A DNA stretch of 64,000 nt. Source: a virus. Its lineage: Duplodnaviria > Heunggongvirae > Uroviricota > Caudoviricetes. Both the position numbers and the translations under genes were made by a program. The notes under the pieces are model-generated. The model was given only the letters and a program-made list of their open reading frames with translations. It was not told the origin of the DNA and did not search any database. Positions 3,324-64,000 of this stretch are shown here, piece by piece (position 1 is the first letter of the stretch; the number at the start of each line of letters is the position of its first letter). The stretch spans positions 87,685 through 151,684 of IMG/VR virus record IMGVR_UViG_3300028797_000103. One strand, written 5' to 3'.

Positions 3324-5300
3324 TTATACTAATTTTGTCCAATCTATGGTTACTCCAAGCCCCTCCAAAACCTTTTGCAGAGAGTTCACCCGCGTCGTGG
3401 GATTAGTACCATCATAGCCGCCGACACCACAAATGTAAATCTCACCATTAGACGTAACTTCAAATGCATTCTTTCTATTTGTGCCAGATGTACCGATACC
3501 TATAGAATGACGTGTACTTGTGTTGGATTTATTGTATGAGCCTTCAGCATGTTCGGCTTCATTAGTAGTTCTTGTATGCACGCCTTCTGTATGAGAGCAC
3601 TGTCCATCTGCTTGTGTACCATTACCTTCTGCATGAGAGCACTGTCCATCTGCTTGTGTACCATTACCTTCTGCATGAGAGCACTGTCCATCTGCTTGTG
3701 TACCATTACCTTCTGCATGAGATGCAAATCTGGTTGCCTCTGTCTGATATCCTTCAGTATGAGATGATGCTCCACTTGCGGCTGTTTGATATCCTTCTGC
3801 ATGAGAATTATCACCACCTGCCGACGTGCCGTTTCCTTCAGCATGAGATGCAACACCAATTGCAGTAGTAGAGTAGCCTTCTGCATGTGCAGCTTGTGCA
3901 GATGCGGTTGTTCGTCCACCTTCTGAATGAGCTTGTATTGCACTCGCTATTGTACTATATCCTTCAGCATGACTTGCTCTCGCTAATGACTCAGAAGCCA
4001 CTCCCTCAGCATGACTTGCATTACCTTTTGCCAATGTTCCATTACCTTCAGCATGCGTAAACGCACCATCATTAGTGTTGGTGTGAATTGATTGTTTACT
4101 ACCTGTTCCAGCTCTTGTATTTGCACCTTCTGCGTGAGAAGTTACACCATCGGCTATAGTTCCAAGACCTTCTGCGTGTGATGCATATTGAGTTGCTTGC
4201 GTGCCTTTACCTTCAGCGTGTGATGAGTTACCGCTTGCAAGAGTTCCATTGCCCTCCGCGTGAGAAAAATATCCAGCCGTGTTTGTGTTATTTGGGTCTT
4301 TCTTCTCTCTGTTACCAGCTACTGTATTGATACCCTCAGCATGAGCTGCTTGACCAGATGCAATCGTGCCAAATCCTTCACTATGAGAAGAAATTGCACT
4401 GGCTGTTGTATTGTAACCTTCTGCATGGGATGCACGACCTAACGATTCAGAAGATATTCCCTCTGCATGGCTTGAATTACCTTTTGCTAAAGTGCCATTA
4501 CCTTCTGCGTGTGTGAATGTTCCTTCACTAGTATTGGTATGTGCTTCTTGTTTGCTACCTGTTCCAGCTCTTGTGTTTGCTCCTTCTGCATGGCTGGTGA
4601 TTCCACTGGCAATAGTGCTTAGTCCTTCAGCGTGAGCTGTGTATTGAGTGGCCTGTGTATCCCTTCCTTCAGTGTGCGAAGAATTACCACTTGCAAGAGT
4701 TCCGTTGCCTTCAGCATGAGAGAAGTCTCCGGGAGTGTTTGTGTTGTCGTGTTGTTTTTTATCTCCGTTGCCAGCTACTGTATTGATACCCTCAGCATGA
4801 GCTGCCACACCTTTAGCTAAAGTATTGTGACCTTCAGCGAAACTATTAACTCCTTCTGCTTTCGTATCTTCCCCAGTTGCTACGGCATTTTTTGCAGTGG
4901 CACTAGCCCCAGTATCTTTCTGCTGGACACTGTTATCACCGCTAGAACCTGTTTCAAATGGAGAAAATTGAAATTCTTTAGAAATGTCTACATAATCACT
5001 TTCTTGTGTTCCATCACCAGAATTGCACATATAAGTTTTATATATTCCGTCTCCTGTGTGGAATGTCAGTTTTATTCCGGCGTGTTTATGTATAACCGGA
5101 AGTTTTTCGATTGCTGTGGCTAGAGTGTATACGCTGGAATCAGTAGCCCCCGGATAAAGACGGTTTACATTGTATTCCGCTATATACTTGTCGAGAGTTT
5201 TTTCATTATCATCAACAACGGCAAAATGCTTTGTTCTTGGATATACGGAAGCGTCGTTATTTAACCTGTCCTTAAATTGTAGTATGTTGTTTTCGCTCAT
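3324..5300 (-). CDS. tail-fibre-like protein with tandem xHAEG(N/Y)xT repeats (paralog 1)
   Basis: 658 aa with about 35 SHAEG-type repeats. Its N-terminus and C-terminus (NAFEVTSNGEIYICGVGGYDG) are conserved with the ORFs at 17378-18994 and 21111-22013. Confidence 0.55.
   Translation of the reverse strand: MSENNILQFKDRLNNDASVYPRTKHFAVVDDNEKTLDKYIAEYNVNRLYPGATDSSVYTLATAIEKLPVIHKHAGIKLTFHTGDGIYKTYMCNSGDGTQESDYVDISKEFQFSPFETGSSGDNSVQQKDTGASATAKNAVATGEDTKAEGVNSFAEGHNTLAKGVAAHAEGINTVAGNGDKKQHDNTNTPGDFSHAEGNGTLASGNSSHTEGRDTQATQYTAHAEGLSTIASGITSHAEGANTRAGTGSKQEAHTNTSEGTFTHAEGNGTLAKGNSSHAEGISSESLGRASHAEGYNTTASAISSHSEGFGTIASGQAAHAEGINTVAGNREKKDPNNTNTAGYFSHAEGNGTLASGNSSHAEGKGTQATQYASHAEGLGTIADGVTSHAEGANTRAGTGSKQSIHTNTNDGAFTHAEGNGTLAKGNASHAEGVASESLARASHAEGYSTIASAIQAHSEGGRTTASAQAAHAEGYSTTAIGVASHAEGNGTSAGGDNSHAEGYQTAASGASSHTEGYQTEATRFASHAEGNGTQADGQCSHAEGNGTQADGQCSHAEGNGTQADGQCSHTEGVHTRTTNEAEHAEGSYNKSNTSTRHSIGIGTSGTNRKNAFEVTSNGEIYICGVGGYDGTNPTTRVNSLQKVLEGLGVTIDWTKLV
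3594..3722. repeat. three near-perfect 42-nt tandem DNA repeats inside the fibre gene
   Basis: The unit ...ctgtccatctgcttgtgtaccattaccttctgcatgagagca... occurs three times and encodes GNGTQADGQCSHAE three times. Confidence 0.8.
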
Positions 5301-8300: not shown

Positions 8301-11300
8301 CCTTTAAGTTTTCGCAGTTAGAAAGGTTGAGCTGCGCACCAGACGCTTCCGTTCCCAAACGAGTGCATCCGTTGCAGTTCAAATATCTTAAGAATTTGTT
8401 CTTTAATAGGGATAGTGTTGTAAGTTTAACCGTTCCCGAAAGATCAAGTCTTGTCAATCTTGTTGCAGCACCAAGGATAAGTGATGACGGTTTTATTTCA
8501 GACAGGTTCTCAAACTCGCGTATTCCACCAGCACCGCTGATGAACATTTCCTTATTACCAGATGTTATTGGTATCTGGAAAAGAAGACCTTCCTTTATTT
8601 CCTGCGTATATGGGTCTCTATATCTTGAGTCTCGGCTGCAATATCCTTCAAGATCGGCTTCGTCCGTACCAACGGTTATTCTGACGTATTGTGGAGAATA
8701 TGTCTTAACACCAAGGAACACATATGTTCCTGTTGTTCCGGTAACGGCATCTGAACGAAAACCTATACTACCGTTCAACGAGTCCGTTTCGTTGTGGTAG
8801 TCGAACAATGTATCGCAATAAATGAGTCTGTTTTTCATCCAAGACTTGAACTTCTGAACGCGGTTTCCGTGCATACGAGAAATATATTCTCCGATATCTG
8901 ACAACTTATAGAATTTGGTTGTCATGTCTCTGTTGTAGTATGCTTCTCCTATAATATCAGAAGTATTCGCAAGATATTTTGCAGATATATTGTCTATTGA
9001 ATAAATTCCGTAATTTCTGATCTTTCCGTAAAGAGCATTGATTTCTGTTCTAAATGCAGTTGCAAATGCTATCCAGAATTTAGATGTTCTTGTGTTATAG
9101 CTCAAATATCTTTCCTTAGCGTTTGCCGCGATGTTATCGAAATATTTTCCAGCTATAGGAGTGTTGTTTATGTTCTTGAACGGGGAAAGGTCTTCTATCA
9201 GCTCAGCGTCTTCTTTTATTATTTCGAAACCTGTGTTATCCAATCCGGCTTGTGAGTCAAGGTCATATGGACGTGGTATCCAATGAAGCCCATCCCAAGT
9301 GTCCCACATAGAGTTCTTTCCGGCGTTGTCAACCTGACCGAACAACATCATCTGCAAGTAGTATATTGCGCAATATTCAAATATGAAATAATTAGAGAAT
9401 TCGTTCTTGAACGTTGTCAGGTTTTTGGATGCTTCAGAAACCCAGTCTATCATTCTTTTCAATCCCCAAGTTGAGTCTCCCCAGAACTCTTTTTCACCTT
9501 CTTCTATATCATCCCAGTCGTATCTCATTTCATAGTCTTGGGCGAAATATTCATACTCGTCCTTATAAGGAACTTCGTAATCTTCTTCTGCCAAGAGATA
9601 AAGATTGTTTGTCCCCTCACGCTTATATGGTGACTCTCCTTCGTAATTCTCAACGAATGGCGTATCTTGTCCAGCGTATGTTTCTATGAATGCGTCGAGG
9701 TCCATAGCTGGATAATTCTCGTCGACATATTGTTTTAGCGTAACCTCTGTTCCAAGATGAGAACGTTTCCATGCCTCATATTGCTCCTCGTGCGATGGAT
9801 ACCAATAATATTCTAACCAGAGGTTATATGCAGTCAAACAATAGTCGTCTCTATAAGCCGTAGCGCAGTAATCAGCAAAACTGTAGAAACATCCAGCTGA
9901 ATTTGATTTGTTTGCAACACCTTCAAAAGATTGCATTATGTTTGATACTCTCGGAGAAACTGGTCCCCATTCTTCAGGATCAAATTCACCGGCAGTCGTT
10001 TCATCAGCGGCTTCATAAACAGCGCCGTCATATGTACAACGCTCACCTTCTTCATATGATTTAGATGGATCATAATTTGGATATACTCCAGCAACAGCTC
10101 TTGGGTTATCAACTTGTATTTCTGTCTCTCCGTCTGTATCGTATTTTGCTGGAGCGTCAAATCCAAGAGATTTTCCGGATTTATCGATGTTGAACATATA
10201 TGTTCCAACATATACACCCTTATCAGTATCAGTGTCGTAATAATCAGCTTCACTTTCGTAGTATTTTACTATACAAGGGAACCCTTTGATTGCGTCGAAC
10301 ATTCCGTCTCGTCTAGCCGGGCTTCTGTGGTCATTTGCGGCTGTATATACTGTATGATCGCTGTTCCATCCTGTTGCGATGTCTCCAGTTTCAACAAGAG
10401 CATCAATCATATCATTATAGAACATACAGGTTGGAGTGTTGTTAAGGTGGGCGGCTTCCATGAAGTCACATTTTAAAGTAAATTTACTTTCCTTTTTCCA
10501 ACCGTCTTGAACTTTAACCTTATACTTATCTTTATAGTTCTCGTCTGTGTATAGTGTTATTTTATAGTTCTTTACTGGATATGCAAGCGAAGACGTTCCC
10601 TGTGTCTGAACGAAACAATGTGGCCACACAACACTATCTTCCCCAGGCTCTTTATATACTATTTTTGCGTGAGCATATCTTTTTTTCTGCTCAGCTTTAA
10701 TTTTCATCTTGTTCAGTTCTGAGAATGGAACAAGCTCTATATTATCTTTAATTTCTTTCGCCGTTCTTCCCTCGGTTGCGTTAATGTTAATGAACTCAAC
10801 TATTGGGAGAACATCGAGGTTTCTTCCGTTTATTCTCTCCTTTTCTTCATCTGTATAGTGAGAAACAATGTAATTGTTATTTACTTCAGATGCTCTAAGC
10901 GCTCTATTATAGAAACGAATAGCCTTTATTTCACACTGCCCGAAATAATCAATGTTGTTGTTTGTTGGATTTGTTGCAGAATTAAGAAGAACTGTAGGAG
11001 CAAAACTTTCGAATATCATTTCGTTCGTAAGTATTGCCGCTGTACACATTGAACCGTTTACGTATATCGTCATCAATCTCTCAGGAGCATAATCCTGAAC
11101 ATCTGAAACTTCGGTGTGAATTTGCTTATCGATGACAAATGTTGCGTGAATCCATTCGTCTTCCGAAACGTCATATTTTATTTGTGCTGATGTGTTACCA
11201 AGGCTCAAGGTGTCGTATGACGCTGAAAAACCGGCAGAGTTCGTTCCGTTTCCAATGTGCGACGTCATGACCTTGTTTTCTAGTTCACCTATACATCTTG

Positions 11301-40165: not shown

Positions 40166-40238
40166 GATCCTGTGAGACATTTGGTAGTCTGGCCGTCCCT
40201 AAAACGGTTTTATGCGGGTTCGATTCCTGTCAGGATCA
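40166..40238 (+). tRNA. putative amber-suppressor tRNA, anticodon CTA (C33 atypical)
   Basis: GATCCTG TG AGAC-ATTTGGTA-GTCT G GCCGT-CCCTAAA-ACGGT TTTAT GCGGG-TTCGATT-CCTGT CAGGATC A. Confidence 0.45.
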
Positions 40239-40245
40239 CAATAAA

Positions 40246-42347: not shown

Positions 42348-42692
42348 ATCCCTAGTGTACCCAGAGCTAGCGTGGACGTGGCTAGGTCGGATGCGATCAT
42401 CAAGTCGCAGACGAAAGAAACCCCATTGATGTAATGGCAGCATACCTGACGCGAATTCAGGAAGTTCGAGTTCGAATCTCGATGGTTTGGGTTCAAAAAA
42501 AAAAACAACGGAACCTTGCTGGTGCGAAAACTTCCGAAAATTCGGCTCTAACCACCAGAAAAAACCGTGAGGACCAAGGGGCACCAACCAGGAAGGCTGC
42601 ATCTTAGTTGTACATACGATGTAGTTGACGTGCTGGGAGAAGTAGATCCATAGGAGCGGAGAAACGTTGTTTTTTAGAAATTTGCGGCGTGG

Positions 42693-42756
42693 AGCAGAGG
42701 TCAGCTTGCCGGTCTCATAAGCCGGAGGTCGTAGGTTCGAATCCTACCGCACGCAA
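42693..42756 (+). tRNA. tRNA-Met(CAT), initiator-like body
   Basis: The sequence TGCGGCG TG GAGC AGAGGTCA GCTT G CCGGT-CTCATAA-GCCGG AGGTC GTAGG-TTCGAAT-CCTAC is closely collinear with E. coli tRNA-fMet. The 3' acceptor strand CGC(A)CGCA carries a one-nucleotide bulge. Confidence 0.6.
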
Positions 42757-45929: not shown

Positions 45930-46017
45930 GGAGGGTTGGCAGAGTGGTCTATCGCGTCGGTCTTGAAAACCGAAGATCTTCACGGGTCCGGGGGTTCGAA
46001 TCCCTCACTCTCCGCCA
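45930..46017 (+). tRNA. tRNA-Ser(TGA) with genomically encoded 3' CCA
   Basis: GGAGGGT TG GCAGAGTGGTCTATCGC G TCGGT-CTTGAAA-ACCGA with a long variable arm, then GGGGG-TTCGAAT-CCCTC ACTCTCC G CCA. Confidence 0.75.
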
Positions 46018-47331: not shown

Positions 47332-47341
47332 CCATTCACAA

Positions 47342-47459
47342 ACAGAAATGGTGAAATTGGTAACCACAGTGGACCAACCCAATATTCCTACTCATGGGGT
47401 AACCCACGGCGAAGCGCAGTAGGTTGTACGTAGCTTGTCGGTTCGAGTCCGGCTTTCTG
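47342..47459 (+). tRNA. ~118-nt tRNA-like element (acceptor ACAGAAA/TTTCTGT, T-arm GTCGG-TTCGAGT-CCGGC) with oversized interior
   Basis: The terminal helix and T-arm are canonical, with a ~40-nt excess between the D-arm region and T-arm. Confidence 0.3.
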
Positions 47460-47478: not shown

Positions 47479-47931
47479 ATGAAAAGGATAGTTTCATTTA
47501 TTTTAATTGATATCGCTGCAATATTGTCTTTCGGTTGTATAAAAGCTGAAACAGACAACCAATGCTTTAAGGTTGGAAACTTTAATGAAGTGATAGAAAT
47601 AAAAGTAGACGATATCACATCAATAGAATATCTTGTTTCATTTAACTTTAATCAAAGATATGTGAAATATCAATGTTGTAAACAGGAAATAACTGTTATA
47701 CAAGAAAGTCCGAAAGAATTTGAAACAATAATTATCTATCCTGTGACAAGAAGAGTAAAAACCTTGCTCATAAATGAGATAACGTTTACAAGAAATTCAT
47801 TTTTATATAACTTAAAAGAGTGGGACAATCTAAGAAGCAACGGAGAAGATTATTTCTGCATATATAATAATAGGGATGCAGTTTGTTCATTTGAACTTCT
47901 TGATGAGATAATTGAACATTGTAACGAATAA
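47479..47931 (+). CDS. secreted hypothetical protein (signal peptide)
   Basis: MKRIVSFILIDIAAILSFGC. Confidence 0.4.
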   Translation: MKRIVSFILIDIAAILSFGCIKAETDNQCFKVGNFNEVIEIKVDDITSIEYLVSFNFNQRYVKYQCCKQEITVIQESPKEFETIIIYPVTRRVKTLLINEITFTRNSFLYNLKEWDNLRSNGEDYFCIYNNRDAVCSFELLDEIIEHCNE

Positions 47932-48084
47932 ACATAAATCGTGAGCACGTTGTGTGCAGAGAGGAGACGTCCCACCACAACGGTCACCGCGATGAAGATG
48001 CGGCTCAAGCTTTAGTCTAGACGATAGAGCCTCGGTCAAAGCCCGACGCAGCCTTGGGGAGAAGCGATAAAGCCTCCCTCGTAT

Positions 48085-48682: not shown

Positions 48683-49224
48683 CAAATAAAATACAAATTT
48701 AATTTTCATGAAAACAAGAGAAATTGATGAATAATAATTTGGGGACGATATAGAATTTGACTCAAGTTGTCGAACATAATAAGCACGTCGTGCGCCGGTC
48801 ATTTAGCACGTTAATCTCGATGATCAAGAAATAGCTGACAACAGCAACTACAGACTCGCTGCTTAATCAACCGTGTTGGTTAACTTAATTCATCGGAGCC
48901 AAGGCAGCTTCGGAACGAGTGCTTCAGCAGAAGTTTTCTGTCTTCGGTATATTCTGCAACACGAAGCATCATCATTAACCGGAGAGCAGCATCGAAACCC
49001 TTCGTATCGATGTTCGCTAAATCGAAGGAAGGCTGTTCAGGTTTTGTTTCTCTTTTTCTGCCAGCAAATTATAAGAGAAAATAAACGTGTAGAAAGTTGT
49101 GTAAGAGATTTGAACACGGCGGGGCGGTTCCGCCCGTCTCCACAAATTTTGGTTCGTTTTGTCACTTTTGTTAAGTTTTTTGAAAATTTTTGCAAAAATA
49201 CTTTTTTATTTCAAATAAATACAG

Positions 49225-55008: not shown

Positions 55009-56196
55009 ATGATTCAATTAACAAAAAAGAAGGTCACCGCTATCATTCTCGGTGTGTTTACCATTGTCGTGCTCTGCCTCCTCGGTAGCGTAGCAGAAGA
55101 CGTTAAGAATGAGCAGATTGTCGTCAACCAGTATCCGATTTCCGGTAAGCTCGTCTACTGGACAGATTCCGGACTCAAGTGGCAGTGGTTCGGTCGCACA
55201 ACCAAATACTACAAGACCCAGCAGTTCTGGTTCGGCGGTAAGGATGTCGACGGAAACTCTCACGGTTCTCCAATCAAGGTTGTGTTCAACGACGCCTCCG
55301 TCGGTTACATTTATGGTTCACTAAGGGTCGTGCTTCCGACAGACGTAGAACACCTAAAACTCATTCAGACCGCATACGCAGGAATGGATCGTCTTATGAA
55401 CGACTTGGTTGCCCAGAACGTCGTCAAGGTAATCTATGCATCTGGTCCTCTGATGTCCGCGTTCGAGTCATACGCTGAGAAGAAAAACGATATGGTATTT
55501 TATATTACAGACCAGCTTACGAACGGCGTATACAAGACAACTACACGCGAGGAAGATGTCGTTGATTCGTTTACAGGAGAAACAAAGAAGGTCAAGGTCG
55601 CGTCCCTCATTGCAGACGAGAATGCGCCTAACGGATACATTCGTTCAGAGAAATCTCCATTCACTTCATACGGTGTGATTATCGATCAGGTGTCCATCAC
55701 TGAAATTACATATGACGATAAGGTAAACCAGCAGATTCAGACCCAGCAGCAGGCTAACATGTCTATCCAGACAAAGAAGGCTGAGGCACTTGCCGCACAG
55801 CAGGATGCTATTAAGGCTGAAGCGGAAGGTAAGGCAGCTGCTGCAAAGGCTAAGTGGGAGCAGGAGCGAATCAAGGCTACTGAGGTTACCAAAGCCGAAC
55901 AGGAGCGCGAAGTTGCTCGCCTTGCCGCAGAAAAGGCTGAATTCGACAAGAAGCGCATCATCGCTGAAGGTGAAGCAGAAGCAGCAGCTAATAGGGCTAA
56001 GGTCGCAGCAGGTCTGACTCCTCAGGAACGTGCAGAGTGGGAATATAAGACTAAGGTTGGTGTTGCCGAAGCATTCTCCAAGATTGAGCTTCCGAGGGTC
56101 ATTATGGGAGGAGCTTCCGGAAGTTCCGGCTCAACAGCTATGGACGCGATGGGTCTAAAGTTCCTTCTCGATTTATCTGAGAAATATTCCAAGTAA
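55009..56196 (+). CDS. SPFH/band-7 (prohibitin/HflK-like) membrane protein
   Basis: An N-terminal TM helix, then a band-7-like core, then a long Ala/Glu/Lys/Gln-rich coiled coil. Confidence 0.55.
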   Translation: MIQLTKKKVTAIILGVFTIVVLCLLGSVAEDVKNEQIVVNQYPISGKLVYWTDSGLKWQWFGRTTKYYKTQQFWFGGKDVDGNSHGSPIKVVFNDASVGYIYGSLRVVLPTDVEHLKLIQTAYAGMDRLMNDLVAQNVVKVIYASGPLMSAFESYAEKKNDMVFYITDQLTNGVYKTTTREEDVVDSFTGETKKVKVASLIADENAPNGYIRSEKSPFTSYGVIIDQVSITEITYDDKVNQQIQTQQQANMSIQTKKAEALAAQQDAIKAEAEGKAAAAKAKWEQERIKATEVTKAEQEREVARLAAEKAEFDKKRIIAEGEAEAAANRAKVAAGLTPQERAEWEYKTKVGVAEAFSKIELPRVIMGGASGSSGSTAMDAMGLKFLLDLSEKYSK

Positions 56197-56220
56197 GGAT
56201 ATAAGCAGATAAAAATTAAA

Positions 56221-56253
56221 GCACGCTGAAATAACAACAGCGTGCTTTTTTAA
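56221..56253 (+). terminator. rho-independent terminator
   Basis: agcacgctg-aaataacaa-cagcgtgct followed by TTTTTT. Confidence 0.65.
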
Positions 56254-56263
56254 TAAATACTAT

Positions 56264-56614
56264 ATGACAACAAAGGAAGAAATAACAGATTTTGGAAAAC
56301 GTTGGTATATAGAAGACGATGATAAAACGTTTCATTTTGCTCTATATATCTATGACGATGATCCAGATGCGCTTTATCTTTCTAATGTTTATGTAAGTGA
56401 AGAGAACAGAAGAAAGGGGTTTGGAAATCTGATTCTTAAAATTGCAGACGACATAGCGAAGAATATGAACGTTTCCGTTATTATGCTTAAAGCGAGACGA
56501 AACAGTTTTATTCACGATTGGTACGAAAGAAACGGCTTTGTTGATTTTCAGATCGATTCCGAGGACGATGGGTTCATATGGATGAAAAAATCGTTGCAAC
56601 AATCAATTAAATAA
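56264..56614 (+). CDS. GNAT family N-acetyltransferase
   Basis: RRKGFGNLILKIADDIAKNMNVSVIMLKARRNSFIHDWYERNGF. Confidence 0.55.
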   Translation: MTTKEEITDFGKRWYIEDDDKTFHFALYIYDDDPDALYLSNVYVSEENRRKGFGNLILKIADDIAKNMNVSVIMLKARRNSFIHDWYERNGFVDFQIDSEDDGFIWMKKSLQQSIK

Positions 56615-58815: not shown

Positions 58816-58828
58816 TATATTTGCAAAA
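58816..58828 (+). promoter_or_regulatory. conserved promoter box gTATATTTGcaaa
   Basis: Located upstream of the polB fragment. Confidence 0.5.
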
Positions 58829-60353
58829 AAATTACAAGTCTTACATGATAATCAATACAGAAATAAAGGATCTGACAAAAAACGGAATGCCGGTGCTGGA
58901 CAGTTATGGTCGTTGCAAACGGTTTCTTTTAATTTCATATGTTGATAAAAACGGAACCATTAAAAAATTCGTCTGGGTGATACCTGAGGAATTTATGTAT
59001 CAGTGGAAATATGCAACAAGAAACGACGTTCCGGATCCTGTATACAAGTCTTGGGATTTTAAAAACGTTGTTAAGGAACCAATAGTTGGAAACTTTTCAG
59101 AGCAGCGTGTACATGAAATGATGCTTGATTTGGTTGCATCAAATCCAGATAATCCTGAACTGAAAGAAATGTTCGAGCTGAACATACCAGAAACGACATA
59201 TGCTGATATTGAGGTAGATGTTGGAGAAGACGGGTTCCCGCTAGCGGAAGAAGCAGCTAACACTGTAAACACTTGTTCATTCGTAAGGGGAAACGATGCT
59301 TGGTGCGTTGGTCTTGCGCAGTTGACAAACGATGACATCGAGTGGATTCAGAAAGAAATTGACAAGCACGTTTCCAAACTTGGAGTAAAATATAATTTCC
59401 ATTATAGATATCATGAAAATGAGCTCAGTCTGTTGAATGATATTTTCCAGAATTTCATAGGTACATCAGAGTGTGTTACTGGGTGGAACTGGTTTGGATA
59501 TGACTGGATATATTTGACAAACAGATCAAATCTTTATGGAATGGATATAAGTTATCTATCGCCAACAAAGTCATTTACAACTTACAGACCGATGGATGCA
59601 AAAGGAAAAGATGATAACATCAGGGTTCCTATGCACAGGGGGATGTACGATTATCTAGAAATTTACAGGAAGTGGGACAAGAGAATAACTCCAAAGATTA
59701 GCAACAAGCTTGACTGGGTAGCAGAGACTGTGCTTGGAATCAAGAAGGTAGCCCATCAGCTCGGATTCCGTGACATGTGGAGACAGCAGAAAAAGGAATA
59801 TGTTTTCTATAATGTAATCGATAGCATTCTTGTGCGGGAGATTGATAAGAAACTGAAGACATCATCAACATTTTTCGGTCTCGCAAACATCATGCACACT
59901 CCGGCTTTGACCGCATTCAGTTCTACGAAGAGTATCGAAATTGTTCAGTCTGAATATCTTTACAGAGAAAAAAGAATATTCCCGAAGGCGAAACAGAACA
60001 ATAACGTTCAGGAGTATGAGGGCGCATTTGTGTATGAACCCATTCCGGGTGTTTATATTCAGGTTTGGACTGTTGACTACGCGTCTCTTTATCCTACAAC
60101 TATGAGGCAATTTAATATGTCTCCTGACACATTTATAAAGAAAGACAAGAATCATAGGAGACAGCCAGATGAGATAGTTTGTGTCAACGGTTCTGTTTAT
60201 ACTAAAAAATTCCGTGGATTCATTCCAAAAATATTGGATGACTTCTACGCTAAGAGAAAGTCGTATAAAAAGAAGATGATTGAGGCTGAAGAAACCAAGT
60301 ACGAATTGCAGGAAATATTAAAAAGCAGAAAAGAAAAAGCAACAGTCGCATAA
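58821..60353 (+). CDS. family-B DNA polymerase, N-terminal fragment (3'-5' exonuclease region through polymerase motif A); gene is split/truncated
   Basis: Exo-I-like YADIEVD and motif A VDYASLYPTTM. The ORF stops ~100 aa after motif A, and motifs B and C are absent. The listed start 58821 probably over-extends, since the promoter box lies at 58816-58828. Confidence 0.55.
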   Translation: MQKNYKSYMIINTEIKDLTKNGMPVLDSYGRCKRFLLISYVDKNGTIKKFVWVIPEEFMYQWKYATRNDVPDPVYKSWDFKNVVKEPIVGNFSEQRVHEMMLDLVASNPDNPELKEMFELNIPETTYADIEVDVGEDGFPLAEEAANTVNTCSFVRGNDAWCVGLAQLTNDDIEWIQKEIDKHVSKLGVKYNFHYRYHENELSLLNDIFQNFIGTSECVTGWNWFGYDWIYLTNRSNLYGMDISYLSPTKSFTTYRPMDAKGKDDNIRVPMHRGMYDYLEIYRKWDKRITPKISNKLDWVAETVLGIKKVAHQLGFRDMWRQQKKEYVFYNVIDSILVREIDKKLKTSSTFFGLANIMHTPALTAFSSTKSIEIVQSEYLYREKRIFPKAKQNNNVQEYEGAFVYEPIPGVYIQVWTVDYASLYPTTMRQFNMSPDTFIKKDKNHRRQPDEIVCVNGSVYTKKFRGFIPKILDDFYAKRKSYKKKMIEAEETKYELQEILKSRKEKATVA

Positions 60354-60563
60354 ATAGTTAAAACAAAAACTATTTAAAATGGCGATCAAGCAGCAGGCAG
60401 TTCGTGCATTCATTGCAACTCCAAGAAAAAAGAGACCCGGTGTTATATCAAAGAAGCGCACATCAAAGATAAAAACATCGAAACACTACGTCAAGGCGTA
60501 TAGGGGTCAGGGAAGATAATTAAAAATTTTTCCGGTTTTATTTGGATTTTAAAAAAAATCGTC

Positions 60564-60576
60564 GTATATTTGCGAC
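60564..60576 (+). promoter_or_regulatory. promoter box gTATATTTGcgac
   Basis: Located 8 nt upstream of tRNA-His. Confidence 0.5.
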
Positions 60577-60583
60577 GTAATAT

Positions 60584-60657
60584 GGAGGGTGTAGCTCAGT
60601 TGGAAGAGCGCTAGATTGTGGCTCTAGAGGTCACGGGTTCGAACCCCGTCTCTCTCC
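60584..60657 (+). tRNA. tRNA-His(GTG) with encoded G-1
   Basis: G-1 GAGGGTG TA GCTC AGTTGGAA GAGC G CTAGA-TTGTGGC-TCTAG AGGTC ACGGG-TTCGAAC-CCCGT CTCTCTC C. G-1 pairs with C73. Confidence 0.7.
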
Positions 60658-60688
60658 CTTAGATAAAATATAGTTCATTGAAAAGTTT

Positions 60689-61398
60689 GCGCTCGTGGCG
60701 GAATGGTAGACGCAAGGGACTTAAATAAATTGAGTGCATACCGCAGGACGCTTAATGCGTGATAGATAAGATAAACAACCCAATTGGGAAGTAGCCTGTG
60801 GACGCTGGGAAACCAGTTATGTAGAACCTCCCTAAGTCGGCGAAACCTTAGCTAGTTAATGTTCAAAGAAGCGTTGAAGTAGTTGTGAAACATTGGAAGT
60901 ATAGTACCAATGGGCTGAATTCTACGGAGTGGAGAAGATTAACTTTGGTGGCAACGCCGAGCAATGTGATGGTGGTTGTAGACGGGAGCTTGTCAAAAAG
61001 GCAGGCGTAATGGTGAATTAACACTCGGAAAGAGCCGTGACCATTTAAGCAGTGTGTAGAGATCATCGAAACATTATGGAGTAGAGTAAGCCAGATATGA
61101 GTAAGTGCAGAGCTTAACGTCTGGTTGAAACAGGAGGAACCTAAGTTGAAATTATTGTATGAATGTTCCCAGTGAACCCGGAACCGAATAAACAGGCTGT
61201 GCAACTCAGCAAACCTCTTCATACAGTACCTTGCAAGATTTCAATATGGTTAAGACATGATCCAGACCACGAACAGACGTGCAGCCATAATAGTCGGGGC
61301 AGTTAAACCGAATTAGCGTGTCTGGCAGCGAAAGTTGTAGTGGTACGAAAATCCCTCGACCCGAAAGGGTCGTGTGGGTTCGACTCCCACCGGGCGCA
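60689..61398 (+). tRNA. tRNA-Leu(TAA) interrupted in the anticodon loop by a ~625-nt group-I-type intron (exons 60689-60722 and 61348-61398)
   Basis: 5' exon GCGCTCG TG GCGGAATGGTAGACGC A AGGGA CTT. 3' exon AAAA TCCCT CGACCC-GAAA-GGGTCG T GTGGG-TTCGACT-CCCAC CGGGCGC A. The intron begins AAATAAATTGAG, like the cyanobacterial tRNA-Leu intron, and ends in G. Confidence 0.7.
60723..61347 (+). other. putative group I self-splicing intron inserted between U34 and A35 of tRNA-Leu(UAA)
   Basis: The insert sits at the canonical tRNA-Leu(UAA) position with a U before the 5' splice site and a terminal G. No convincing internal ORF is present on the sense strand. Confidence 0.55.
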
Positions 61399-61402
61399 CA
61401 AT

Positions 61403-61486
61403 GCAGATGTGGCGGAATGGTAGACGCAGCAGACTCAAAATCTGCCGGGCGATGAGCCCGTGGGGGTTCGACTCCCCCCATCTGCA
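61403..61486 (+). tRNA. tRNA-Leu(CAA)
   Basis: GCAGATG TG GCGGAATGGTAGACGC A GCAGA-CTCAAAA-TCTGC with a long variable arm, then GGGGG-TTCGACT-CCCCC CATCTGC A. Confidence 0.75.
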
Positions 61487-61490
61487 CATT

Positions 61491-61922
61491 ATGAAAACTA
61501 TTAGATTTTCTTCGTATGAATCATTTAAAAAATGGTTTTATAGAAATAAAAGAGAATGCGATTTTCCTCTTATAGAGAGGAACAATTGGTGGTTGAGGCG
61601 TCAAGAAAATCTCGACATGTTTAGATATGTCACACCAAACGGAAAATGTTTAGGGATAGCAGCAGTAACTCCGTATGAATCTGATTGGAAAGATGACAAA
61701 CGAAAATACATAAGTCTGTTTGAAATTCATAGAAAATTTCATAGAAAGGGATATGGGTATTGGATGTTTCGTTCAATAGAGAATTATTATAAAAGCCGAG
61801 GCTCTACCCATTTTGCGTTGATGAGCGTAGATGATGAAAGCGATCGCTTCTGGAGAAAGTTAGGTTTCCGCCGTGGAAATCTAAGTGTAGAAGAAAATGA
61901 TTTGCAATATAGAATAAAATAA
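61491..61922 (+). CDS. GNAT family N-acetyltransferase
   Basis: RKGYGYWMFRSIENYY...FALMSVDDESDRFWRKLGF. Track ORF 61374 was trimmed to the ATG after tRNA-Leu(CAA). Confidence 0.5.
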   Translation: MKTIRFSSYESFKKWFYRNKRECDFPLIERNNWWLRRQENLDMFRYVTPNGKCLGIAAVTPYESDWKDDKRKYISLFEIHRKFHRKGYGYWMFRSIENYYKSRGSTHFALMSVDDESDRFWRKLGFRRGNLSVEENDLQYRIK

Positions 61923-61951
61923 GGAGAGTGAATTAACACTCTCCTTTTTTG
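61923..61951 (+). terminator. rho-independent terminator
   Basis: ggagagtg-aattaa-cactctcc followed by TTTTTT. Confidence 0.7.
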
Positions 61952-61968
61952 TTTTTAATATAAATTCA

Positions 61969-61980
61969 GTATATTTGCAA
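61969..61980 (+). promoter_or_regulatory. conserved promoter box gTATATTTGcaa
   Basis: Located upstream of the methyltransferase. Confidence 0.5.
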
Positions 61981-61996
61981 AAATAGTTTTAATTGT

Positions 61997-62935
61997 ATGC
62001 CGAGATTAGGAAATAACTTTTTAATAAATGCGAGACGAGAACGAAATGATGAATTCTATACTCAGTATTGTGATATTGAATCTGAGATGAAAAAATTTGA
62101 AAAATTTTTATCCGGAAAAATTATATATTGTCCAACAGATCATCACACGAAATCGAATTTTCCTGTCTTCTTTAGAAATAACTTCGAACGATTAGGCATT
62201 CGAGGGTTATATACTAGTGATATAGATGACGGGGCATATTATTATGACGGAAAAAATGAAACAAGAATAGGAGGACCGGTTGATATTAGAGGGGACAGGT
62301 TCATAGAATATATGTGTCTTTCTGATGTTATAATAACAAACCCGCCGTTTAGCTTATTTGTTAAGTTTCTAGACAATATCATCAACTATGAAAAGGATTT
62401 CATAATAATAGGTCAACAAAATACAATATCAACAAAATCTGTATTCTCATATATAATGGAAAATAAAGTTTATGTTGATTATGGATTTAAAGGAATAGCC
62501 GGTTGGTTTGATGTTCCAGATGATTATGTTGATTCTGCTTCTGCTGGCGAACACATAAAAGGAAAAATAAGGGTGTCTGGCGTTGTTTGGTATACATCAT
62601 ATAACGTTACGGAAGACAACGATTCAATAGAATTAACAAAATCTCATTTGAAAGAAAACGGCGAGCATGATTATGAAAAGTATCCAGTGTTTGATAATTT
62701 TAGGAAAATATCTGGGTTGTCTGAGGATGCAATATGTGTAGATAAAGTAAAAGACATACCTTATGATTGGAACGGGTATATGGGAGTTCCTATTTCTTTT
62801 TTCGGAAAATATAATCCAAATCAATTTGAGTTAATACAGTTAGATCATTACGGACCGCTTGGAAATCAAGATAATTGCATAAATGGGAAACAAAAATATA
62901 GAAGGATTTATATAAAATTAAAAAAACAATGTTAA
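61997..62935 (+). CDS. N6-adenine (or N4-cytosine) DNA methyltransferase
   Basis: Motif IV VIITNPPFS, plus a SAM-binding-like N-terminal region. Confidence 0.55.
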   Translation: MPRLGNNFLINARRERNDEFYTQYCDIESEMKKFEKFLSGKIIYCPTDHHTKSNFPVFFRNNFERLGIRGLYTSDIDDGAYYYDGKNETRIGGPVDIRGDRFIEYMCLSDVIITNPPFSLFVKFLDNIINYEKDFIIIGQQNTISTKSVFSYIMENKVYVDYGFKGIAGWFDVPDDYVDSASAGEHIKGKIRVSGVVWYTSYNVTEDNDSIELTKSHLKENGEHDYEKYPVFDNFRKISGLSEDAICVDKVKDIPYDWNGYMGVPISFFGKYNPNQFELIQLDHYGPLGNQDNCINGKQKYRRIYIKLKKQC

Positions 62936-63609
62936 CTGATATAGAAGTTCGTAACATCGAAAGAGATTTAATTGAAACAATAAATCTCGTTGGAGGAATA
63001 CCAAAGTGGGGAAGCGTTCAATGTGATAAGAACGACGATATAATAAAAAACATATTTAGCATAAAAACATATAAAGAACTTTGTGAAACATTTGATAATT
63101 TACACATAGATGATATTTATAAACGAAACTATTTGACAAGAAAATGGTTTAAAATTATAATATCAAAAGTAGATGAAGAACTTTTATTTGACAACGGTTC
63201 TAAAAACGCTATATGGAATTTATCGGCATATGACAAATCGTTCGACGGAACGCTGTGTGGGGTAAACGTCGATTTAAAATCAACTATAATCCCAGAGAGT
63301 CTTTTTAGATCAGAATGGTGGAACCCAAACACTATAATAAATTGGTTTTATTCAAATCAATCTAAAGAAAGAAGGTTTGGAACAAATAACAGAGTATTTA
63401 TAGTTTGTGGTTCAGAAAACGGAGAAAAATCTACAGATATACTACAAAGTTCATTTACTATTAAACAAAGTATTCTGAAAGATTTCTCAGAAAATATAGG
63501 GATAACGATACCATGGGTTCATATAAACTTTAACGGAAATAATATTTTATCTCAAGTTATATATTTTTGGGAAACTAAATCAAACGGAGTTCAATATAAA
63601 TTTGGATAA
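62929..63609 (+). CDS. hypothetical protein adjacent to MTase
   Basis: 226 aa, overlapping the MTase stop by 7 nt. Confidence 0.4.
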   Translation: MLTDIEVRNIERDLIETINLVGGIPKWGSVQCDKNDDIIKNIFSIKTYKELCETFDNLHIDDIYKRNYLTRKWFKIIISKVDEELLFDNGSKNAIWNLSAYDKSFDGTLCGVNVDLKSTIIPESLFRSEWWNPNTIINWFYSNQSKERRFGTNNRVFIVCGSENGEKSTDILQSSFTIKQSILKDFSENIGITIPWVHINFNGNNILSQVIYFWETKSNGVQYKFG

Positions 63610-63612
63610 CAA

Positions 63613-64000
63613 ATGAAATACAAATTTGCGTTTAAGAAATTTACAGGAGAGAAAATCGAAGATGTTGTTGAATATGCAAAGGATTGGATAAACTCTCATG
63701 AAAATATAGAGATCTTAATAGGAACAGATTCTCAAAGCCGTGGTGAACGGACATATTTTTCAACCGTTATTGCATTTTACAATAAAGGAAGTGACGGTCA
63801 TGGACACGGTGGTCATTGCATATACAGAAGATGGTTTACGAAAAGATATAACGTTGACCAGAAAATAGAACGACTATTTAAAGAAGTAGTAGAATCTGTA
63901 GAACTTGCTCTGTATTTTAAAGAAAACGGAATAGACGTTGATTTCATTGACTTGGATGTGAATCCAAAGGCTGGCGAAAAACAGCGTAATAAATCGAACG
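63613..64000 (+). CDS. hypothetical protein (3' end outside window)
   Basis: The frame starting at ATG 63613 stays open to the window end. Confidence 0.35.
   Translation, partial: MKYKFAFKKFTGEKIEDVVEYAKDWINSHENIEILIGTDSQSRGERTYFSTVIAFYNKGSDGHGHGGHCIYRRWFTKRYNVDQKIERLFKEVVESVELALYFKENGIDVDFIDLDVNPKAGEKQRNKSN

Follow-up and report, generated by a model that had tools for sequence, protein, structure and literature searches.

The DNA examined here is a window of 64,000 nucleotides (nt), the whole stretch that was analysed, from IMG/VR virus record IMGVR_UViG_3300028797_000103, and this report concerns a gene near its end which encodes the front part of a family-B DNA polymerase, here called polB-N, together with an interrupted transfer RNA (tRNA) gene located downstream of it. 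An earlier note, made from the sequence alone, had described at this place a polymerase open reading frame (ORF) with exonuclease motifs and polymerase motif A that ends before motifs B and C, and the coordinates, Pfam matches and motif alignment bear this description out. The gene is positioned as follows:

58845-60353, plus strand: polB-N, 502 amino acids (aa), comprising an N-terminal domain, a 3'-5' exonuclease, palm motif A and the first fingers helix

Translation could also begin at a TTG at 58821, which would give an ORF of 58821-60353; ATG 58845 is the start chosen by gene callers in three independent public assemblies. The protein contains Exo I (DIE), Exo II (NxxxxD), Exo III (YxxxD) and motif A (DYASLYPTT), and closes with a TAA soon after the first fingers helix, with a second in-frame stop next. 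It matches two Pfam families, DNA_pol_B_exo1 and DNA_pol_B, the latter solely over profile positions 22-145 of 453, so that polB-N ends about one third of the way into the polymerase domain. Its PHROG matches are phrog_2062, a profile of 502 positions, and positions 111-502 of the 856 positions of phrog_262, a full-length family. Aligned to RB69 gp43, it covers residues 187-502, with 11 residues remaining beyond. Motifs B and C of a polymerase are encoded neither in the 64-kb window nor in the 10 kb downstream of it, as searched by tblastn.

The length of polB-N is a property of its family. Indeed, the best 120 homologues, which range from 100% to 44% identity, are 487-525 aa long, except for four shorter and evidently partial sequences. 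The Exo I-III and motif A residues (DIE, NxxxxD, YxxxD, DxxSLYP) are invariant in all 22 sequences of an alignment that takes in the Lak-A2 megaphage, gp105 of phage PAU and the front half of a full-length cyanophage gp43, and both the short length and the catalytic residues are kept down to 25-44% identity. The ORF of Lak-A2 (36% identity) stops at the homologous point (…EELKHILEHRKQSA versus …ELQEILKSRKEKATVA, each followed by its stop), and the ORF end is the same in an 82%-identical relative (L242).

The missing part of the enzyme is encoded by a separate gene. It was traced from PAU gp110 to the C-terminal half (C-half) of the huge phage LR756504 (408 aa), from there to the C-half of Lak-A2, to metagenome families and to an IMG/VR contig of this phage's own JGI metagenome; among the 120 matches listed, protein searches queried with the Lak C-half and with protein P0240 did not contain it. 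The C-half protein of this phage (P0359, 423 aa) carries KTFINSVYG (motif B), YGDTDS (motif C) and KKNY (the KKxY motif), has DNA_pol_B as its only Pfam match, and extends from the second fingers helix, which bears motif B, through the palm hairpin of motif C and the KKxY motif to the thumb. Motifs B, C and KKxY are invariant in an alignment of eight related C-part sequences. The C-half covers positions 575-840 of phrog_262, next to 111-502 for the N-terminal half (N-half), and the PHROGs collection holds separate families for the two halves of the polymerase. The N and C genes thus both exist, are both conserved, and together tile the full polymerase.

The two genes are not neighbours. The earlier note had allowed for split subunits with the C-terminal part outside the window, which the conserved separate gene of 423 aa confirms; it had also proposed to look for that part downstream of position 64,000, where the next 10 kb were negative, the C-half being instead at an unlinked locus. 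A contig of 328,867 bp is on record for the exact N-half and likewise for the exact C-half; the exact proteins of the polB-N region are found on an ENA contig of that length (k141_3285839 in ERZ27257207) and also on contigs from JGI and Logan, and SRR10393136 is a further sample that carries this phage. Within JGI sample 3300033463, contig Ga0310690_10000698 has the N-half and contig Ga0310690_10000222 the C-half, near 95 kb; combined with the window, these separate contigs place the halves at least ~59 kb apart. A 30-mer taken from mid-window had no match in IMG/VR. On Ga0310690_10000222, the C-half (10001-11272 of the stretch L372) comes right after a gene for a Dam-type methylase and an ORF of 179 aa; at 7-10 kb upstream of it are a prohead protease gene and a gp23-type capsid gene, a tail-sheath gene lies 2.4 kb downstream, and a metallophosphatase gene is also nearby.

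A comparable layout is found in the relatives. In Lak-A2, the N-half is at 123 kb on the minus strand and the C-half at 346 kb on the plus strand, and in LR756504 the N-half is at 256 kb on the plus strand and the stand-alone C-half (408 aa) at 538 kb on the minus strand. The complete genomes of Lak and of the LR7565xx phages contain a single N locus and a single C locus each, separated by 220-280 kb and located on opposite strands, and no intact polB was found in these complete genomes. In other IMG/VR huge phages, the halves are 14-20 kb apart. The N and C halves occur together in every complete or large relative examined. The C-half of Lak-A2 (MK250019, L009) is itself interrupted at motif C (~3430-4260; …GDTD/S…HN/SIYVEF, slashes marking the limits) by an insert that resembles an intein and includes in-frame stops and a frame change, and many C-half homologues have a Pfam Intein_splicing match or are ~510-600 aa long. 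A conserved hydrophobic C-half tail is present in this phage clade, in LR756504 and in Lak-A2 (…SLF, …SLW, …ALW) and not in PAU; we take it to resemble the clamp-binding tail of gp43.

The place of the break can be read from the two alignments. Since the N-half reaches RB69 residue 502 and the C-half profile starts to align (at profile position 11) at RB69 residue 533, with motif B shortly beyond, the break falls at the fingertip, between the two antiparallel fingers helices. Natural splits of T4-like gp43 have been reported at this same place (PMC3061061, citing Petrov et al. 2006, 2010).

A first explanation of such a short polymerase gene, raised in part in the earlier note, is that a recent insertion of tRNA, GNAT and methylase genes truncated polB, leaving a decaying pseudogene while another polymerase replicates the genome. 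The stop before motifs B and C, with nothing polymerase-like in the next 10 kb, is what this explanation predicts. It is contradicted by the length and catalytic residues that are kept at 25-44% identity, by the same ORF end in the 82%-identical relative, by the existence of a conserved intact C-half gene, and by relatives that have one N, one C and no intact copy. Furthermore, the break is identical in Lak-A2 and comparable in PAU, and in both the genes downstream of the N-half are entirely different from those of this phage. The split is therefore much older than the present neighbourhood and predates the divergence of these phages; the tRNAs, GNAT and methylase did not cause it and are ordinary members of a replication region rich in tRNAs. 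A pseudogene of this kind has next to no probability. The conserved length, the invariant residues, the end point shared with Lak-A2, the gene pair of PAU and the separate PHROGs families all indicate a split that is fixed and not decaying. We conclude, with a probability of roughly 0.85, that polB-N encodes the whole N-terminal subunit of a replicative DNA polymerase of family B, which is of the T4 gp43 type and made of two subunits.

In this two-subunit enzyme, the N and C polypeptides would be translated separately and would bind each other non-covalently, with the antiparallel fingers helices and the shared palm sheet as contacts, to form a single active, exonuclease-proficient replicase, the halves being joined by neither an intein nor an intron. 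Separate translation and non-covalent assembly are most likely because the junction has no intein blocks and the termini vary among relatives. The analogy for assembly is provided by the split gp43 of T4-like phages and by an engineered Pfu polymerase split at the fingertip, whose kinetics are wild-type and which can be rebuilt from fragments made separately (PMC3061061).

Covalent joining of the halves would be another way of making a whole enzyme, either by split-intein protein trans-splicing, as in the PolB of Nanoarchaeum, or by RNA trans-splicing by split group I or group II introns. Inteins do invade this polymerase family, as in motif C of the Lak-A2 C-half and in many C-half homologues, and there is a group I intron 370 nt past the end of the N-half. 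That intron is, on the other hand, fully accounted for within a tRNA-Leu gene. The N-half ends in extein-like fingers-helix sequence followed directly by TAA, with no N-intein block; the C-half begins with Met and fingers-helix sequence and has DNA_pol_B as its sole Pfam domain; no intein domain was found by Pfam in either protein; and the termini differ in length and sequence among relatives, as free ends would. Covalent joining is thus scarcely credible.

It could also be proposed that the N-half acts alone or with another partner, as a stand-alone proofreading exonuclease or accessory factor, and that the C-half has some other role. The genes are indeed unlinked and belong to different modules (the replication/tRNA region and the capsid/sheath region), and Iyer et al. 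describe an additional split minimal Pol III alpha in the group 2.2 jumbo phages, where Lak is placed (PMC7824862). We consider independent roles very unlikely, because motif A, with its catalytic aspartates, does not vary in the N-half, nor do motifs B and C in the C-half, which is expected only if a complete active site is rebuilt, and because the two halves co-occur throughout the complete or large relatives examined.

Several points weigh against a two-subunit replicase. The assembly and activity of the subunits are features that we infer, by analogy, for every member of this clade. The C-half stands amid late structural genes, an odd setting for an enzyme of replication and one that bears on when it would be expressed. 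The placement of both halves on one molecule rests on the shared contig figure of 328,867 bp and on the common sample, not on coordinates, and a second, intact polymerase in this phage is probably absent, as judged by way of the complete genomes of its relatives.

The phage itself is related to Lak and other huge phages. By tblastn against phage records, the top matches of polB-N are the Prevotella Lak megaphages of ~540 kb (36% identity, with 98% of the query covered), followed by the LR7565xx huge uncultured phages and then by the Sphingomonas jumbo phage PAU and T4-like cyanophages. The content of the window (at least 31 tRNAs, a transfer-messenger RNA (tmRNA) and a tRNA of the amber-suppressor type) and the ~329-kb contig fit a Lak-like huge phage. 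A crAss-like phage, to which the earlier note had linked the polymerase, was rejected, given the best matches to Lak and LR7565xx, the ~329-kb contig and the gp23-type capsid and sheath genes. Of the interpretation put forward in that note, the split itself stands, while the crAss-like affinity, the adjacent C-terminal part and the insertional cause do not.

Polymerases split at the fingertip have close counterparts among phages. The bicistronic 43A/43B form of gp43 in the T4-related phages 133, 44RR, 31, 25 and 65 belongs to the same T4/RB69 gp43-type family, is broken at the same fingertip place and likewise has a separate ORF for each half and no intein. The spacing of the 43A and 43B cistrons is given as 2 bp to 3 kb (Petrov et al. 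2006, 2010, as cited in PMC3061061), whereas the halves are here at least ~59 kb apart and in different functional modules, and 220-280 kb apart on opposite strands in Lak-A2 and LR756504; in addition, the split is here fixed across a very large and deep clade. Phage PAU is a cultured example of the same two-gene arrangement, with gp105 (N, 487 aa; 26% identity to polB-N, E 2e-31) and gp110 (C, 404 aa), but its halves are undispersed, being 2.4 kb apart and separated by the dUTPase gp106, gp107, gp108 and the clamp gp109 (PMC4889955).

Outside the gp43 type, the PolB of Methanothermobacter thermautotrophicus consists of two non-covalently associated polypeptides whose genes are 85 kb apart (Kelman et al. 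1999); it shares the unlinked halves but is split in the palm, ~83 residues further on. The split Pfu enzyme shares the fingertip break and is fully active but is an artificial bicistronic construct, and both are archaeal enzymes. In the literature library searched, no paper was found that describes a dispersed polymerase split in Lak-like phages. In short, gp43-type polymerases split at the fingertip are already known, and PAU is already annotated as such; it is the dispersal of the halves and the fixation of the split across the clade that set this polymerase apart.

For annotation, this means that a "truncated" PolB of ~500 aa in a contig of a huge phage is neither a pseudogene nor a sign of an incomplete genome, and that its partner gene of ~400 aa may lie at any place in the genome; this architecture is seen in hundreds of metagenomic clusters. 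Halves of a replicative polymerase fixed at unlinked loci across a deep megaphage clade extend the modularity of family B, and raise the question of how their stoichiometry and timing are controlled.

Downstream of polB-N, a tRNA-Leu(UAA) gene is interrupted by an insert of 625 nt:

60689-60722, plus strand: 5' exon of tRNA-Leu(UAA), ending at U34; its spliced product fits tRNA-Leu(taa)
60723-61347, plus strand: predicted group I intron of 625 nt, ORF-less, with large peripheral insertions, assigned from profile matches and core pairing
61348-61399, plus strand: 3' exon of tRNA-Leu(UAA), starting at A35, defined by the spliced product

When 60689-60722 is joined to 61348-61399, a perfect 86-nt tRNA-Leu(taa) is obtained, with the exon-exon junction …GGGACUU/AAAAUCCCU…. 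The orthologous gene of the 82%-identical relative (L242, 5349-5434) is intronless, which places the insertion point between U34 and A35. The insert is identical in independent assemblies and contains no ORF. It was silent in general searches: Rfam (RF00028 and all other families) gave no match at the gathering threshold or at E <= 10, blastn of the interrupted tRNA gene gave no match to phage records, and a 16-mer from the J4/5 segment gave chance matches only in IMG/VR. The long-intron mode of ARAGORN mostly fused adjacent tRNAs and was not relied on.

Because the first bases of the insert (AAAUAAAUUGAG) resemble those of the tRNA-Leu intron of cyanobacteria, actual introns showing this pattern were collected for comparison, from the tRNA-Leu(UAA) genes of Nostoc, Mastigocoleus, Pyrinomonadaceae, an uncultured bacterium and a Bacteroidales rumen genome. 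On these control introns, RF00028 confirmed three (104.9, 73.6 and 51.5 bits, against a threshold of 50 bits) and missed two true ones; the 51.5 bits were those of the Bacteroidales intron, which is thus only borderline. A profile was made of six verified tRNA-Leu group I introns and run with nhmmer over the whole window on both strands. Its three best matches window-wide all lie within the insert, in the order of the model:

60717-60740: P1 (E 0.018)
60804-60852: P2 tip, P3, P4 and J4/5 (E 6e-4)
61246-61350: P8', J8/7, P7' and P9 to the terminal G (E 7e-5)

Weaker collinear matches in the insert correspond to P5'/P4' and to J6/7-P7. The core helices are all able to pair, including P1 with a U-G pair at the 5' splice site, P5, a candidate P6, and the following elements:

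60827-31/61133-37: P3, 5 bp
60837-42/60955-60: P4, 6 bp
61061-65/61258-62: P7, 5 bp
61138-41/61248-51: P8
61267-70/61340-43: P9.0
61325-29/61334-38: P9, with a GAAA loop
61347: omega-G

P7 shows two compensatory changes relative to the family (GACUA/UAGUC to GAUCA/UGAUC), and the minimum-energy fold of the insert, computed without constraints, regains P3, P8, P9.0 and P9. A covariance model of the family (R1) cannot span the large extra domains in the insert: its global alignment fails, and its matches to the insert are partial and collinear, or misaligned.

These data bear on whether the insert may be something other than a group I intron, for example a different intron class or a mobile-element remnant that inactivates the tRNA. 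Such a reading would account for the silence of all Rfam families, for the failed global covariance alignment and for a length two to three times that of known tRNA-Leu introns in an insert that has no ORF. It leaves unexplained the exact insertion between U34 and A35, the U-G pair and the terminal G, the three ordered nhmmer matches, the pairing of P3 to P9 with the compensatory changes in P7, the helices regained in the unconstrained fold and the identity of the insert across independent assemblies; in addition, the silence of RF00028 has to be read with its borderline score for the true Bacteroidales intron and with the two others that it misses. We regard such an insertion as unlikely.

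On the pattern of conserved sequence and pairing, the insert is concluded to be a group I intron of the tRNA-Leu(UAA) lineage, closest to non-cyanobacterial forms (Bacteroidales, Pyrinomonadaceae), and it is recently acquired at the canonical site between U34 and A35. Three features run counter to this assignment: the RF00028 group I model does not match the insert, a 67-nt insertion lies between P7 and P3', which is unusual for the tRNA-Leu intron lineage, and the covariance model offers an alternative P3' pairing at 60984-88. A functional tRNA-Leu(UAA) is predicted to require removal of the intron, probably by self-splicing.

The group I introns of bacterial and plastid tRNA-Leu(UAA) genes belong to subgroup IC3. 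They share with the phage intron the U34/A35 site, P1 and a 5' start of AAAUAA(A)UUGAG, GAAACC in J4/5, P4', J8/7-P7', the P9 GAAA hairpin and the terminal G. The phage intron differs in its length (625 nt against ~205-330 nt), in extra domains after P1 and in P5, P6, P8 and P9 as well as in the 67 nt between P7 and P3', and in sitting in a phage tRNA gene, below every Rfam threshold. Bacteria other than cyanobacteria (L294, L295) also have group I introns inserted at this position of tRNA-Leu(UAA): the intron of the Bacteroidales rumen genome JAFZYD010000097 (L294, 6038-6241) has the 5' and 3' ends most similar to those of the phage intron, and the intron of the uncultured bacterium (L295) has an HNH homing-endonuclease ORF in P6.

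Introns have also been reported in tRNA genes of Lak megaphages (tRNA-Phe, Gly, Thr and Tyr), where they were called "enigmatic" (Devoto et al., bioRxiv 10.1101/356790). Like the present intron, they interrupt tRNA genes of huge gut phages and are present or absent between related genomes, whereas the intron described here interrupts tRNA-Leu(UAA) and can be placed in a group I lineage that is already known. In the literature search, no paper was found in which a tRNA-Leu intron of a phage is placed in group I. The Lak introns may have been left unclassified because the Rfam model misses expanded forms. The assignment is the more informative by-product of the analysis and links an intron of a phage tRNA gene with the classic group I lineage of tRNA-Leu.

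A bolder combination of ideas can be offered tentatively, the odds being somewhat against it: the insert would be a group I ribozyme from the ancient tRNA-Leu(UAA) lineage, active and mobile, which has passed between chromosomes of Bacteroidales and tRNA genes of megaphages and gained new peripheral domains, including a P7.1/7.2-like insertion, and at the same time the dispersal of the polymerase halves to early and late modules would let the phage control replicase assembly by expressing each half separately. If true, a mobile group I ribozyme would give a mechanistic identity to the "enigmatic" Lak tRNA introns.

The remaining genes between polB-N and position 63,609 are listed below. The tRNA-His, the intron-bearing tRNA-Leu(TAA), the tRNA-Leu(CAA), the GNAT gene, the N6A methylase and the 226-aa ORF all lie where the earlier note had placed them.

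60379-60519, plus strand: very basic ORF of 46 aa, right after polB-N; the exact protein is present on 6 contigs
60585-60658, plus strand: tRNA-His(GTG), called by ARAGORN; Rfam tRNA, 64 bits
61403-61487, plus strand: tRNA-Leu(CAA), called by ARAGORN; Rfam, 60.8 bits
61491-61922, plus strand: GNAT acetyltransferase, 143 aa; Pfam Acetyltransf_1, E 3e-9; the same gene follows the tRNAs in L242
61997-62935, plus strand: EcoRI-type N6-adenine DNA methyltransferase, 312 aa; Pfam EcoRI_methylase PF13651, E 1.4e-66; conserved in L242
62929-63609, plus strand: ORF of 226 aa, with a 7-nt overlap with the methylase stop

The 46-aa protein is rich in Lys and Arg (…KKRPGVISKKRTSKIKTSKHYVKAYRGQGR), has a 47-aa homologue at the same place in L242, and matches no family in Pfam, PHROG or NCBIfam. 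A longer, GTG-started version of the GNAT ORF overlaps a tRNA. The 226-aa ORF is possibly a PD-(D/E)XK-like nuclease candidate: E83, D115 and K117 are invariant in a divergent alignment, and no family or structure match was found in Pfam, PHROG, NCBIfam or a structure search. This ORF is missing beside the same methylase in L242, and its Priestia homologue has no methylase neighbour. A restriction-modification pair formed by the methylase and the 226-aa ORF was considered and is unsupported, there being no endonuclease match and no consistent partnering with a methylase. The gene order in L242 is polB-N, the 47-aa ORF, tRNA-His, tRNA-Leu(UAA), tRNA-Leu(CAA), GNAT, methylase, an RNase H-like protein, NT5C, a UvrD helicase and an RNA ligase.

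Other features were noted elsewhere in the window. The dense tRNA region (34642-61487) comprises 31 ARAGORN calls, an Rfam tRNA at 42684-42755 and the intron-containing tRNA-Leu(UAA); some of the tRNAs in the window are unusually long, namely tRNA-Met (89 nt), tRNA-Trp (87 nt) and tRNA-Cys (86 nt). Inside this region, a full-length tmRNA gene is found at 48741-49145 on the plus strand (Rfam RF00023, 86.9 bits, E 2e-32), without an ARAGORN call. A tRNA with anticodon CTA, of the amber-suppressor type and labelled 'Pyl' by ARAGORN, is encoded at 40166-40239 on the plus strand, and TAG is the terminator of 3 of the 56 long ORFs of the window, which would fit the recoding of TAG described for Lak phages, these counts alone not being decisive.

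Furthermore, an uncalled tRNA-like sequence of ~118 nt (47340-47455, plus strand), with the acceptor ACAGAAA…UUUCUGU and a T-arm, follows tRNA-Gly(TCC), and a group I R-like element GUGCAGAGAGGAGACG with a weak match to the intron model (E 0.93) is found at 47903-48080 on the plus strand, just upstream of tRNA-Ala; taken together, these sequence elements could represent a second interrupted tRNA or intron. A Band_7/SPFH-family protein (395 aa) and a second small GNAT (116 aa) are encoded at 55009-56614 on the plus strand, upstream of the polymerase region. Finally, the 329-kb ENA contig k141_3285839 begins near window position 46,010, so that the window spans the start of that contig, which fits either a circular or circularly permuted genome or a window derived from another assembly.

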